Source: Chthonomonadales bacterium
GTDB taxonomy: Bacteria > Armatimonadota > Chthonomonadetes > Chthonomonadales > CAJBBX01
Direction: 5' to 3'
DNA length: 62,325 bases
NCBI GenBank assembly: GCA_037443035.1
Contig: JBBIPC010000023.1
Location: 1-62,325 of the forward strand
Position numbers: made by a program. Of the stretch, positions 1 to 9,000 are shown piece after piece (the first letter of the stretch is position 1; the number at the start of each line of letters is the position of its first letter).

Positions 1-3000
1 GAAGAACCTGCGGCTACACGGCCTCCGGCCGTAACGCATCACGACGTTCCCCCCGCGATCAAGGACGCACACCGTGTAGCCGCCGCTTCTCGCGGCGCAA
101 GACGCGGGGCGGCCGTTCGTTGCCCCGCCATGCGCTGCGTTCGGTACACCCAGATCGTCATCGGAGCACGCAATCGCCGGCGCGTCGGCTCCAGACCGTC
201 TCACAACTCATCAGGCAGCCGAAACGCCATCACCTTGCCCGTCATGCCGCTATCGAAATCGAGCCAAATCGCACCGTCCGCCTGGGCAAACCGTGCCGAC
301 TCCACCGTGATATATCGCACGCCTGTCGTGGCAGGCACGGTGATCGTTGCATCCCCAATGCCCCTCCGAAACGCTGGAGGGTTCGCTCCTGCGCGCACGG
401 TCACCACATGATCGGAGCCATGGGTGTTCGTCACACGAATCACGAGCTTCCGCGTATCTCCTCCAGCAGCGATGGACGCACCGTTCGCCGGTACGATGGT
501 CGTACCCGCCGGCTCTGCCATGCCGTCGTTGATGCCCAGAGCCGTGATCGTAACGCTATCTCTTGCCATGTTCCTCTCCTCTCCACATCGAAGTGCCCTG
601 AAGACCACCCCGATATCCACCGAGGCTGCCGCCTATGTTGCACCGAGGCCACGCGGAGTGCCCTGAACACTGTCCGGGCACTCCATCGGGATCCTCTCTT
701 CAGCACCCACGCATCCGCGACTAGCTCTTGCTCGCCACCAGACATGCCAACGCGGACGGACGCGTTACCTTGGCCCCGTAGAGATGCAGTGCTTTCACGG
801 CGTCCGCGAATCGGAAGGGGTGCCGATAGGCTTCTACTTCCCGGATCTGCTGGGCGAAGGTCCACGCCTGTGGCACACCGGCGATGATCTTGTATTTGGC
901 GCCGCTCGTGTTGGCAACGTTGTTGGAGACGTAGATCGTCATGCCAGCCGCCTGGCCGACTTCACCGTTCCGCAGAACACGGTCGCTGGCCGCAGTGCCT
1001 GCCTTCACGAACCGATCGTCCTTGAGCAGCAGGCCATAGCACCAGGGAGGCATGACGCAGAACCGATCGGATCGGGGTGCATTCGCCTCGTCGAGCTTCA
1101 CCGACAGATCCACCAGCATCTCGTAGAGCGTATCCGCAGTTGGAACTTGCGGCGACGCCTCGGAGCCGATGTAGTTTCCCGTATCTATCTGCGCATGGAG
1201 ACCTGCGAGGTAGGCGTCTGCCTCGTCCGCCAGGGCGTAGGCTGCCTCGCGCATGGCAGCGTCCATGACTTTCGGCGTCTGCTGCGCACGGTCCACGTCG
1301 TCAATCTGGAAGTTGATGTAGCGCGCCCGGTTGATGACCAGCGTCGTCTCCGCATCGGCGAGAGTCTGCGGCCCCGCGATATCGGCGTTCTGGGCGTACT
1401 CCGAAACGGTAATGGGACCGATGGCATGGATTCGCACCGTGTCTCCGCAACCGCGGATATCACCCTCGTAATCGTGGTTCATGACCGCAGGCTGACCGTA
1501 CACCTGCGTCTTGTGGAGGTTGTGCAGCAAGCGCGCCGCCCAAACCTCCGGGATGAAGTTATTCAGACTCACTTAGGCCTCCTTTCCCTCTGGCCGTAGA
1601 CGCAATCCTCATTTCGTGCCTTGTCCGCGAAGCGCCGCCTCGATGGCTGTCCAGTTGGCGTTGATCTCCTCCGGGCTCATGCGCCGTATCGCCTCGAGGG
1701 TCAGCAGGCGACTGCCGTCGCGAGGTGGGTTGGCCGGACTCGCGGGATCGCTATCACCCGCAGTGCCGGGCTGTGGCTCCCGCTCATGTGTGCCTTTGAG
1801 CCATGGTCGCTCCTCGAGCATCTGCCCGAGCACTTGCTCAACGTTCGTCGGCGTCCCCCCATCGTCGAACTCCAGACGCTCCAGGTCGAGAAGCCGAAAT
1901 GCTGCATCCTCGTCCACCACGCCTGCCCGTCGCGCCCACCGCTCCACGGCAAGCCGCACCTCGAGCAATCGGGCCCGCTCCTCTGCGGCGCGGGCCCTCT
2001 GCTCTGCGTGGTCGTTCCGGCCATCTTCCGCATGACCGCTGACCGCCTCGGTTTCGCTGCTATACATTCATGCCTCCTCGACCTACCCCTCTTGCGGACG
2101 ACCCGCCGCACGCACAGCGGCGAGAGTGTCCTCCCAATTCCATGGATGCCCAGCCTCGAGAGCGAGCGCTGGCGCACCTGCAACCGTTTCCTCCGTATCG
2201 GCTCGCAGGACAGCCCAGAGTGCCTCCACGCCGGCAGCCTGTAGCGCGCCCAATAGCTCCGTGCGCTGACGCTCCGTTACCAGCACGCTGGCACCCATGT
2301 AGGTCACCACCGGTGAACCCTCAGCCTCCCAAGCTGAGCTCAAGTCAGCCCTCAGAGGCACGCCGAACGTGGCCCGCTCCGATTCGCCACCCGGCAGTAC
2401 CTTGCACGCAACCTCTCCCGCATGCGACACCTGGCGCACAGGCACCAGGACGTGCAGCCTCCATACGTAATCGCTCATCGCCGACCTCTGGCCTCTCGCG
2501 CAGGACCGCCCCTTGCACTCATGCTCCAAGACCCGCCCATGCCATGAGATACCGCGCCAGGCTCGTTCGTTCGGCAGCAGTGAGTGCACGGTTGTAGACA
2601 GCCCATGCGCCGATATACCCCTTGAAGGGGTAGAGCACCGTACCAGCGCGCTCAGCCGCACCAATGATGAACCGGTCCACCGTCATCGTGCCTACATCCA
2701 TGGCTCCGCTTTGCTCCAGCGTGCCATTGATGATCGTCCTCGCCGTCACTCCCGGCATCTCTCCAAAGCTGGCTACGACCACCTGCGTTGCATTCACCGT
2801 GACCGCCGGACCAGACAGCGTAGTGGCCACGGATCCATTGTCGCGACGGTAATGGGCCAGCGTCGTGCCAGATACGGAATACAGCATCGTATAGGGGGTC
2901 GCGGTGGCGCCATTGCCAAGACCCTGCATGGCCCGATAGGTGCTGTCCGTTACCCGATAGACGAGTCCGACCGTGAAGGGCACGTCGTCGCCACTCAATA

Positions 3001-6000: not shown

Positions 6001-9000
6001 TTCGTCATGAAGTTCACCGAGTCACAGTAGTACTCGGGCACATCGGAGTAGTCGTCAAGACTCATGGAAGGGCCTCCTACAGGATGGGATCCGCCTTAGA
6101 CATGGTGCAGTGTACCAGAACCGCCGTCCTCCGTCAACCAACCGGCCCCTCCAATAGTATATATACGTCTACCTGTCTCCTTGTCTCAGGCGTCGCGCCG
6201 CCGATCTCAGTACTTGTCGGAACCCTTCTCGGGCAGACGCACGATCCAGATATTGCGATATTCCACCTTGTTCCCGTGGTCCTGCACCACGATGGGTCCT
6301 GCTGGCGCCGGTTCCTTCTCCTTCTGCCACTGAATGCCGGTCATGCCCTCGATCTCCACGTTGTTCTGGATCACGATGCCGTTCTGGAGCACGGTCACAC
6401 GCGGCTTCTCTGTCATCACGCTGTTACCATCGAACCTCGGTGCACGGAAGATGATATCGTACGTCTGCCATACCATGGGCGGTCGGCAGGCGTTCACCAG
6501 TGGGGCGGACTTGTCGTACACCGCACCGCAGTCGCCCTTGCCAGGCACCTCGATCCCATAGGAGTCGAGCACCTGGATCTCGTACCGTCCCAGTAGTCCT
6601 ATGCCGCTGTTGCCCTTGCCCTGGCCGGTGGCGTTGGGCATGTCCGGGCAGCGAAACTCCACGTGGAGGTGAAAGTCCCGAAACTCCTCCTTCGTCATGA
6701 TGTCGCCTCCGCCCACGACCATGGCATCGCGTTCGATCTTCCATGCCGCGGGCTCGCCGCTGCCCCTCTTGACCCAGTTAGCAGCCAGCTCGTCGGACTT
6801 ACCCGAGAAGAGTACGACAACGTTGGAAGCCTTGGGCGGAGGTACAGGAACCTGGTCTTGACCGTGCGCACCAGCAACCCAGCATGTGGCTGCCACGGTG
6901 CACAGAATGGAACGAAGGATGGGGTGTAGCATGCTGATACTCCTTTCGTCTTGCAGCGAATCCGGAACCAGTATGACATGCAGCCTCCGCCGCGCGACTC
7001 GGTGGTTGAGTAGTCCTTATCCCGGTCGGGACCTTCGGTGGTTGAGTAGTCCCGATGGCTATCGGGACGTATCGAAACCACCGACCCTCCGCATGCCACC
7101 ACATCCAGGCCGGTCGTTTCGATACAGCCCGACGCTTCGCGTCGGGACACGCCACGATCGGCCAGCGCGGGGTCGTACCCAGACCTCCACAACCTCCATG
7201 GATGTATGATCGCGCGGCGAGAACCCGCGGCTACACGGCCTGCGGCCGTAAGCCAGCAACGTCAGCGCAGGCGTTTCCCCAGGCCGTAACGCATCCGCAC
7301 GCTACCGCTCGGAGATGCACGCGCAACGTGTAGCCGCCGCTTCTCGCGGCGCCACCCGCGGTGGTTGAGTAGTCCCGATGGCTATCGGGACGTATCGAAA
7401 CCACCGACCCTCCGCATGCCACCACATCCAAGCCGGTCGTTTCGATACGCCCCGACGCTTCGCGTCGGGCTACTCAACGACCGGTCGAGCTGCACGAGGC
7501 TTCTGGAAAAGCNNNNNNNNNNNNNNNNNNNNNNNNNNNNNNNNNNNNNNNNNNNNNNNNNNNNNNNNNNNNNNNNNNNNNNNNNNNNNNNNNNNNNNNN
7601 NNNNNNNNNNNNCTTCGCGTCGGGCTACTCAACGACCGGTCGAGCTGCACGAGGCTTCTGGAAAAGCTGCTGATGTCTCTGACTCAAGCGAGACCACCGC
7701 GAGTGTATCATACACGCATCGGAGGTATCCCCACGTGGATTCATTGCACAAACTTTCGCGGCGGCAGGCGCTGGCAACTGCGATTGCTGGGACCGCGGCA
7801 TGGTTCTTGGACAAGGAAGCAATCGGTATGAACGAACAGTCCAACTCAGGTCTCGCTAGAACGTCACCTGGATCGGTCGGCGTGGCATCGGAAGGTGTGC
7901 TCCGATTCCTCGACGCTGTGGAGGAGAAAGTCGGAGGTCTCCATAGCTTCATGCTCGTTCGCCACGGCAAAGTCGCGGCTGAAGGATGGTGGCGCCCGTA
8001 CGCCCCGAGAAGCCCGCACATGCTGTTTTCGCTGAGCAAGAGCTTCACGTCCACCGCTGTAGGTCTCGCTGTCTCGGAAGGCCGCCTGACAGTGGAGGAT
8101 CGCGTCGTGGACTTCTTCCCCGAGCAGGCTCCGGCTAGTCCCAATGCCAACCTGAGAGCCATGCGCGTCAAGCACTTGCTCACCATGACCACCGGACATG
8201 ACCAGGACACCCTGGATCGCACTGTACGCGCCAACGATAGGAACTGGGTCCGAGCCTTCCTCTCCCTGCCCGTAGAACACGAGCCAGGAACCCATTTCGT
8301 CTACAACAGTGGCGCCACGTACATGCTCTCCGCCATCATCCAGAAGCTGACCGGTACGAGGCTCCTGGACTACTTGACGCCACGCCTCTTCGCACCCTTG
8401 GGCATCCACGGCATGACGTGGGAAACGTGCCCCATGGGCATCGATACAGGAGGCTGGGGCCTCAGCATCAAGACCGAAGACATCGCACGCTTCGGCCTAC
8501 TCTATCTCCAGCAGGGTCTCTGGCGCGGCCGCCGCATCGTGCCCGCCGAATGGATCGAGAAGGCGACAGCGAAGCAAGTCTCCAACGGCCAAGACCCCAA
8601 CAGCGATTGGGCCCAGGGCTACGGCTATCAGTTCTGGCGCTGTCGCCACGGCGCGTACCGGGGTGACGGAGCCTTCGGCCAGTATTGCATCGTCATGCCG
8701 GAGCAGGACGCCATCCTGGCAATCACGAGCGGTGTTACAGACATGCAGGCCGTGCTCAACGCAGTCTGGGACCATCTCCTGCCCGCCATGAGCATGGGCA
8801 AGACGAAACCTGCCGACGCGGATGAACGTCTGCGCCGTCGCCTCGCTGCCCTGGAGATCCCTCTGCCGGCAAGTGCTACCAATGCGCCTGCCACGCGGAA
8901 GATCCTGGATCAGACATACCGCATCACTACCAACGATCGAGGCATCACAGCCGCGCGCTTGACCATCGAAGGCGATCGCCTTGACCTGATGCTGAGCACA

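Follow-up and report, generated by a model that had tools for sequence, protein, structure and literature searches.

A phage-derived gene set at the start of the analysed window (C23, the whole 62,325-nt stretch of a contig of the Chthonomonadales genome G000) and on a second contig, C56, codes for the parts of a phage head as far as its junction with a tail, namely portal, scaffold, capsid, large terminase (TerL), a probable adaptor, a stopper and a fibred spike. We assign a probability of about one half to the reading that it specifies a host-domesticated, vertically inherited, SOS-induced and tail-less head particle resembling a gene transfer agent (GTA), whose head has been replaced at least once. 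Other members of the family have, next to the same DUF3467 gene, a tail-less head of another, Mu-like kind (type B); that of G000 is type A. The best reading of these comparisons is that the head was replaced at least once while the same switch was probably retained, and the swapping of a different phage head under one switch points to an undescribed GTA-like particle.

The first-pass annotation had listed 13 phage-derived genes, and these proved to be real and intact, with the quoted Pfam and PHROG matches reproduced. Ten are minus-strand ORFs at 201-6065 of the window. Downstream of the DUF3467 gene lies the portal gene, of the SPP1 gp6 type (4423-5691, with the start at 5685 or 5691; PF05133, 1e-15; phrog_64, 1.5e-16). 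It is followed by a gene for a 60-aa hydrophobic membrane protein (3781-3963), recognised by the hydropathy of its G199 homologue, which gave no family above cut-off in Pfam, PHROG and further family searches. This protein has dN/dS of 0.04-0.21 and is a candidate holin; no endolysin gene was found within the module. A 70-aa protein (3572-3784) is common to both head types, with 19-28% identity to the type B copies in an alignment of 16 homologues, and had no informative match in an Atlas structure search. The head-spike base protein (3315-3572) is a homologue of RcGTA Rcc01079 (NF048002 above cut-off; PDB 6tb9, E 5.5e-10; phrog_12296, 1.4e-23). The adjoining head fibre (2519-3313) combines an N-terminal GLG docking peptide with a LamG/ConA-like lectin domain (PF13385, 8.8e-10), and its N-terminus, MGAALGLGVRLG, is similar to the RcGTA fibre peptide IALGLGLGL. 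The GLG motif is missing from the two fibre copies of genus g6 that were aligned, and the g6 loci have no spike base.

Next come a 131-aa protein (2083-2478) with zero Pfam or PHROG matches, found in half of the ten type A genomes, and the capsid scaffolding protein (1609-2067; PF06810, 4.4e-08, below cut-off; phrog_194, 5.7e-07). The major capsid protein of type A (721-1572, 283 aa) matches phrog_267 (1.3e-71) and PF25209. Directly 3′ of its gene lies that of a 122-aa protein (201-569; phrog_24894, 2e-29) without a PDB sequence match in a profile search. This protein had been described as tail-like but more probably decorates the capsid. Tailed prophages also have it behind the capsid gene; its homologue holds this position in prophages L034, L037, L038 and L039.

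C56 carries TerL and two small genes, all on the minus strand. TerL (C56:1024-2514; phrog_2, 2e-33) has recognisable Walker A/B and nuclease-type motifs; its gene is frameshifted in G172 and has stop codons in G127 and G087. The first pass had suspected that adaptor or tail genes might hide among the small ORFs, which holds for a probable adaptor and a stopper, whereas no tail was found. The larger small protein (C56:396-938) is probably the head-tail adaptor, judged by its position and a weak profile likeness to a type B protein (E 0.0004-0.002). The protein encoded at C56:70-402 has the gp16 fold of a stopper: Foldseek matched it to the SPP1 gp16 complex (E 8e-4), and VIA gave Z scores of 9.8-10.7 to neck chains of phages and RcGTA. 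Its homologues in phage L110 and prophage L045 lie among neck genes, immediately before the tail. Profiles of adaptor and stopper gave no real PDB sequence match, and other comparisons of small proteins between types A and B were not significant (E 0.05 for the type B stopper candidate). Neither a small terminase nor an HNH gene was found in G000, where the candidate small terminases of type B, of g6 and of G049/G207 have zero homologues.

The proposed join of C56 to C23 agrees with the contiguous gene order in G199, G062, G399 and L106, and the assembly itself gives no join. A repeat core occurs at both contig ends (1-106 of the window, beyond which the module carries on at C56). Of its 31 copies, 13 lie no more than 500 nt from a contig end. 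The support for the join is the gene order of relatives. A contig from sequencing run X1 spans 82-4150 with 154 differing letters and stops at the same repeat, and so provides no test of the join. The module length had been given as ~9.5 kb; the two G000 pieces sum to 8.3 kb, and three relatives have 7.8-7.9 kb. As reported, the module of G000 is interrupted between the portal and 60-aa genes by an inserted genome-wide repeat (3964-4422) with a 100-N assembly gap (4155-4254). The repeat core was found in none of five relative loci, and in relatives the two genes overlap. The flanks are host genes (parA-parB, hydrolases). They had been said to differ between genomes, but the parA flank is common to five relatives and L106 and was lost in G000. 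The module has no integrase or replication gene, as had been noted, and both tyrosine-recombinase matches in G000 are on other contigs. A satellite was also considered and fails on the absence of integrase and replication genes. The module likewise lacks the combination of integrase, replication, tail and lysis genes that marks an intact prophage.

The module's presence, previously called patchy, follows host clades: nine of the type A genomes group in a single clade (SH-aLRT 100), with G207 as the one outlier. The G207 capsid groups with that of G049, indicating some lateral movement. Among 21 family genomes tested for both capsids, ten had type A only, seven type B only, four neither and none both; one head type or the other was present in 20 of 24 family genomes. 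G289 and G309 (96% complete) have neither capsid. The capsid tree broadly follows the host tree. The type B capsid tree groups by host family with two changes, and across three families this capsid has a median identity of 74%, compared with 72% for GyrB. The type A module displaced an earlier head module of this order. Its capsid shares 56-64% identity with those of the viral contigs L107 and L110, type A modules have TerL genes of two unrelated families, and host genes (dinB, an epimerase and a topoisomerase) lie within type B modules.

Module proteins had been said to diverge in step with GyrB. They diverge faster (median identity 64% for the capsid, 50% for the portal and 77% for GyrB), with rank correlations to GyrB divergence of 0.58-0.69. 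Every computable dN/dS was below 1, as claimed; rows pairing the G282 capsid or protease with paralogue L102 were left out. All 13 genes gave 0.01-0.24 in the G062-G399 pair, and the adaptor and stopper (0.12-0.45) were among the fastest-evolving module genes. Values below 1 are also frequent in prophage structural genes. No acceleration was seen in G000 (227 vs 223 lineage-specific changes). The view of an inherited, domesticated packaging module is supported by clade-wide presence in one copy each, the host-like capsid tree, dN/dS below 1, the parA flank in common and an operator of host type.

This operator is a palindrome of the type AGTAGAC-N4-GTCTACT at 6154-6175 (25.1 bits), a putative LexA (SOS) box. 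It had the top score among 2920 G000 genes (local-shuffle p=0.003), in a test that is partly circular because the training sites were picked by a consensus originally derived from the promoters of the modules. The operator lies 5′ of the first gene in 21 of 27 starts, covering both head types, and is missing from all three g6 modules; among 176 control starts there were nine high scores, all at module genes or genes sharing the module's spacer. Its half-site AGTAGAC occurs in 25 of 32 lexA upstream regions, module-less genomes included, and the full lexA operator is weak (rank 44 in G000; significant in 14/32). High scores were also found at recJ and at a Y-family polymerase-dnaE2-like pair, and the operator was absent at recA (rank 553) and uvrA. 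The second-best score in G000 belongs to an unlinked sigma-70-region-4/Zn-finger gene (C15:33735-34316), which is present in 28/31 module genomes vs 5/33 others; TerL and this sigma-like gene occupy separate loci in several genera. DNA damage seems to turn the head genes on.

The DUF3467 gene (5784-6065, minus strand; 93 aa; PF11950, 2e-11) anchors head types A and B. It is present in 19 of 24 family genomes, its product is 67-91% identical across head types, and G289 retains it without head genes. It has its own promoter, of the sigma-70 type (TTGACG-17-TACACT, 6109-6137, minus strand; the same pattern precedes DUF3467 in 14 of 20 loci), and its own terminator, an intrinsic-terminator-like hairpin before the portal gene (5713-5744, minus strand; 9/20 loci pass a strict test). 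The structure model of the protein (pLDDT 55) was too poor for a fold search, Atlas gave DUF3467 clusters only, and a PDB sequence search gave no match.

Queries with tail proteins from the nearest tailed relatives gave no match in G000 (tblastn, phmmer), and G000 was negative for TIGR01760, phrog_5, phrog_28 and PF11367, the last three of which did detect the prophage of G036. Across the 24 family genomes, the tail completion family was found in none and a tape measure in two; a tape-measure match occurred in only four of the 31 module-bearing genomes (G163, G399, G036 and G118). No RcGTA-type terminator, tube, tape measure or baseplate was found in or near the cluster with families that strongly divergent, distant tails could escape. 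Annotated operator matches included no recognisable phage tail operon besides an extracellular contractile injection system (eCIS). That contractile locus (C2:147688-177365, with Pvc16 cap, sheath, gp19 tube, eCIS core and baseplate) is a separate eCIS. It was ruled out as the module's missing tail, since a sheath match occurs in only 5/10 type A and 1/10 type B family genomes.

In the favoured reading we infer LexA binding, the role of the sigma-like gene, lysis, packaging and delivery. DNA damage would release the module promoter and the sigma-like gene from LexA, and the product of that gene may be an activator taking transcription past the DUF3467 terminator or may stand in for the absent DNA-binding small terminase. 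Scaffold, portal and capsid would build a prohead, TerL would pack host DNA into it, and adaptor and stopper would seal the filled head. After lysis of the producer, the lectin head fibres may attach to the surface of kin cells, and DNA could enter through the competence system of the recipient or through a borrowed phage tail. ComEC was found in 5/5 genomes and also in 10 of 14 controls. We know of no way in which a tail-less head injects DNA, and RcGTA requires its tail (PMC7296036). A tentative, broader version is an order-wide SOS-controlled GTA without a tail, in which the control circuit was kept, capsid and terminase were swapped, and phage tails or competence provide delivery. The kept circuit would consist of the operator, the sigma-like gene and the DUF3467 site.

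The neck proteins are where other readings diverge. Adaptor and stopper are under selection and such proteins normally dock a tail, as expected of an ordinary tailed GTA with tail genes at another locus, too divergent for the families used. FpGTA offers a two-locus precedent: the available part of its description (PMC12946183) places tail and lysis genes ~125 kb from the head operon, with tails invisible on the particles. We regard this reading as unlikely given the negative tail searches in G000 and the lack of a phage tail operon among annotated operator matches. The module also ends at the stopper, the point at which cf-PICIs are cut, and the available text on these elements (10.1101/2025.02.11.637232) has tail-less capsids attaching foreign tails via adaptor and connector. 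By analogy, a head-only GTA might deliver host DNA with the free tails of co-infecting phages, and an SOS trigger would presumably coincide with prophage induction. The rarity of tape-measure matches among module genomes means that such tails would come mostly from outside, and we think this improbable.

The rapid evolution of adaptor and stopper, which in the available cf-PICI text both set tail specificity, also suits an anti-phage or decoy device, in which damage-induced heads and neck proteins absorb phage tails, mis-size capsids or mis-package DNA. Gene transfer would there be incidental. The exchange of head type and terminase for versions akin to circulating phages (L107, L110) and the two TerL families within type A fit such a device, but the lectin spike suggests cell binding and a type B capsid as conserved as GyrB over three families is unlike an arms race, and we give it a small probability. 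Decaying remnants of two prophages that shared an integration spot by chance would account for the broken TerL in three genomes, the loss in two near-complete genomes, the repeats inserted in G000 and the host genes inside type B modules. This reading is largely contradicted already and very improbable: genes have stayed intact between hosts so distant that dS approaches or exceeds 1, the same tail block is lost in both mutually exclusive types, and the operator moves with the first gene.

Literature searches within the accessible papers found no relevant description of the module, and one search found no LexA box described for the order, for which the operator proposes one. The GTA families listed in Table 2 of PMC9953437 come from few lineages. 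If the favoured reading is true, a head-only system across a bacterial order poses the question of tail-less DNA delivery, and a domesticated virus function has persisted beyond the genes that first provided it, with another phage head taking over at the same site and operator. The operator would supply an induction cue, DNA damage, which makes the particle question directly testable.

In PBSX and similar SOS-induced defective prophages and tailocins, phage structural genes fixed in the host are served by a sigma-like activator, as may be the case for the module; those elements keep the tail, the module the head. RcGTA (Rhodobacter capsulatus, Rhodogtaviriformidae) shares with the module a chromosomal portal-capsid-adaptor-stopper-TerL set, a homologous spike base whose fibre has a docking peptide of the same kind, parts at several loci and diversification alongside the hosts. 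It differs in its terminator, tube, tape measure and baseplate, none found in the module, and in the families of its capsid and portal; the spike genes of the module lie inside the head operon. In the available part of its description (PMC12946183), FpGTA of Faecalibacterium has a ~10-kb head-and-packaging operon conserved across its lineage and particles without a visible tail. FpGTA differs in encoding homologues of short-tail proteins, and its baseplate, fibre, holin and endolysin come from a second operon; the stopper of the module is of the long-tail type, and a second operon was not found. With cf-PICIs, as the available text presents them, the module shares its own capsid, portal, adaptor, connector and terminase, a packaging module ending at adaptor and connector, without tail genes. 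Those elements are mobile islands of 10-18 kb that have an integrase as well as modules for replication and regulation and that package their own DNA, whereas the module is inherited with the chromosome and has none of these components. CcGTA of Caulobacter, in the accessible part of 10.1101/2023.11.12.565669, has a terminator after the first cluster gene and regulators elsewhere, and a similar anti-termination might operate across the DUF3467 terminator. In terms of the GTA viriform features of Kogay et al., the capsid, portal, scaffold, TerL, stopper and spike base genes encode Caudoviricete-derived proteins, the module is fully endogenised, at several loci as is often the case, and, apart from G207 and the replacement of type B by type A, its inheritance is mostly vertical with host co-diversification.

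The contig under study (C23) opens with ten minus-strand genes at positions 201-6065, encoding a DUF3467 protein, portal, 60-aa membrane protein, 70-aa protein, spike base, LamG protein, 131-aa protein, scaffold, capsid and 122-aa protein, the last a candidate decoration protein. A second contig of the same genome, C56, carries the large terminase (TerL) and two small genes at 70-2514. Repeating the searches recovered the family matches that the first-pass annotation had assigned to these genes, confirming that its phage-derived module is real. All 13 genes were contiguous in three other genomes (G199, G062 and G399; run of 7.8-7.9 kb) and likewise formed one run in L106, a contig from a viral collection that carries a parA flank and looks like host DNA. 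This order agrees with the proposed junction of C56 and C23, but because a genome-wide repeat occurs at both internal breaks of the module, we infer the junction from the relatives with contiguous order. A dispersed hairpin repeat family occupies window positions 1-106, 3964-4422, 7016-7484 and 12351-12509, with a second N gap inside it near 7500-7600; the genome has 31 core copies, many at contig ends. A Y1 transposase, with one weak match at C13:74541-74723, could mobilise the family. The housekeeping pair rpsO-pnp lies at 12483-15356, 6 kb from the module.

The last module gene, on C56, is predicted to fold as a head-closure stopper (pLDDT 91), with phage and RcGTA necks as its best structural matches; the preceding gene is probably the adaptor, judging from its position and a weak profile likeness. 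TerL retains Walker A, Walker B and nuclease-type motifs. The spike base protein matches Rcc01079 of RcGTA and is followed by the LamG protein, whose N-terminus reads MGAALGLGVRLG. In RcGTA, according to PMC7296036, the fibre docks on the base via IALGLGLGL and binds capsule polysaccharide. The loci of genus g6 have no spike base, and the docking-type peptide is missing from the two g6 LamG proteins aligned. We take the LamG protein to be a head fibre.

In tailed relatives, namely three prophages (L034, L037 and L045) and a phage (L110, capsid 56% identical), the head genes run on into neck, terminator and tube homologues, and a tape measure was identified in L045. None of their tail proteins matched the genome under study. 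The tail-completion family was missing from all 24 family genomes, and a tape measure was found in two of the 24. The sheath and baseplate of this genome were rejected as the module's tail; they belong to a capped extracellular contractile injection system (eCIS), whose distribution does not track the module. The eCIS locus (C2:147688-177365; L192 and L193) encodes a Pvc16 cap, sheath, tube, eCIS core, spike hub and baseplate, and 227 nt upstream of it lies the copy of the putative SOS box (described below) that ranks third. A separate podovirus-like prophage region (L073, G207:C180; phrog_332 and phrog_212) was seen in G207.

Of the 21 family genomes searched, 10 carry the capsid of this module, termed type A, each in a single copy. 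Nine of these genomes formed one clade in the GyrB+RpoB tree (SH-aLRT 100), with G207 outside. The capsid tree broadly parallels the host tree inside this clade and places phages and prophages outside, the exception being G207, which groups with G049. Terminases vary within type A: G049 and G207 have TerS and another TerL in the usual place, g1 and g3 have TerL between decoration and adaptor, and in g6 TerL occupies a separate site, its partner gene giving no family match. In family f2, TerL genes 56-64% identical to ours (L055, L056 and matches in G409 and G379) were found, and in some cases no head genes lie next to them; the matches in G409 number seven and are fragmentary.

Pairwise dN/dS was 0.01-0.24 for all 13 genes between G062 and G399, 0-0.39 for nine genes between G181 and G268, and at most 0.51 across six type A pairs. 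Module dS was similar to or lower than host dS, and comparison with G199 revealed no excess change in the module under study. Counting against selection, TerL is broken in three genomes (G172, G127 and G087) and neither capsid type is present in G289 and G309. The DUF3467 gene (5784-6065; L069) is conserved at about the GyrB level, with 0-1% amino-acid change within three genera; it comes with a promoter and a terminator of its own, and G289 retains it despite the loss of head genes.

The TerL search, which matched 43 of 68 genomes of the order, brought to light another module, type B, comprising small helical protein, TerL, DUF3467, Mu-type portal, protease, cement, a capsid of another family, neck-like genes, 70-aa protein, and lectin or esterase. 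Its capsid was found in 25 of the 68 genomes (at least 71% to the query in 21 of them), matches GyrB in its degree of conservation and clusters by host family; outside the order, matches occurred in 11 sampled genomes at 25-52% and in one viral contig at 60%. None of the 21 family genomes tested for both capsids had both, and 20 of 24 had one or the other, the 24 including three B genomes in which only B was tested. Both heads are located at DUF3467 in this family. B is distributed over three families and A lies nested within a single one, from which we infer that A replaced B. Several type B modules (L046, L047, L049, L087 and L092-L096) contain a dinB-type polymerase gene, at several different positions, and many an epimerase gene, consistent with an SOS link. 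A multi-gene stretch of L085 (G319:C1068) is present twice, forming a large inverted repeat that may be an assembly artefact.

A conserved sigma-70 promoter precedes DUF3467 in 14 of 20 loci, and a terminator follows it in nine of 20 by a strict test. Upstream of the gene (6154-6175) lies a palindrome of the AGTAGAC-N4-GTCTACT type, and a second copy with an AT spacer precedes an unlinked sigma-70-region-4/Zn-finger gene (C15:33735-34316; assigned partly via homologues). In the other two families, homologues of this sigma-like gene sit immediately ahead of TerL or of the small partner of TerL. Homologues were present in 28 of the 31 genomes that carry a module, compared with 5 of 33 other genomes, four genomes with distant B capsids being excluded. 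With a matrix built from 12 sites before sigma-like homologues in other genomes, the module ranked first and the sigma-like gene second among 2920 genes of the genome under study. The operator precedes whichever gene starts the module in 21 of 27 starts (type A, 7/10; type B starting at the small gene or TerL, 8/9; separated type B portal operons, 6/8). The training set of the matrix was chosen by a consensus read from module promoters, and the related genomes are not independent. Among 176 control starts, which exclude parA and the sigma-like gene, nine scored high, all of them module genes or starts sharing the module spacer. By unguided counting, AGTAGAC was the commonest 7-mer before lexA (25 of 32 genomes, module-less ones included). 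In lexA upstream regions across the order (L230-L234 and L301-L327), the motif AGTAGAC-N4-GT lies over the lexA promoter and is a candidate LexA box of Chthonomonadales. The operator also scored high at recJ and at a Y-family polymerase-dnaE2-like pair, and not at recA or uvrA. We predict from these sequences, with a probability of about 0.7, that the palindrome is a LexA box.

In the simplest account, DNA damage would induce production of a head that would be filled with DNA, sealed and decorated with lectin spikes, a particle made for the benefit of the host. ComEC was present in all five genomes checked, so that a recipient might be able to take up DNA. Our literature search for a description of such a system found no relevant paper; PMC13669383 deals with capsids that lack a portal and is not applicable to the module. 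The module falls outside both the RcGTA type and the capsid-forming PICIs. It displays all three of the gene transfer agent criteria that can be judged from sequence (10.1101/2022.06.10.494566).
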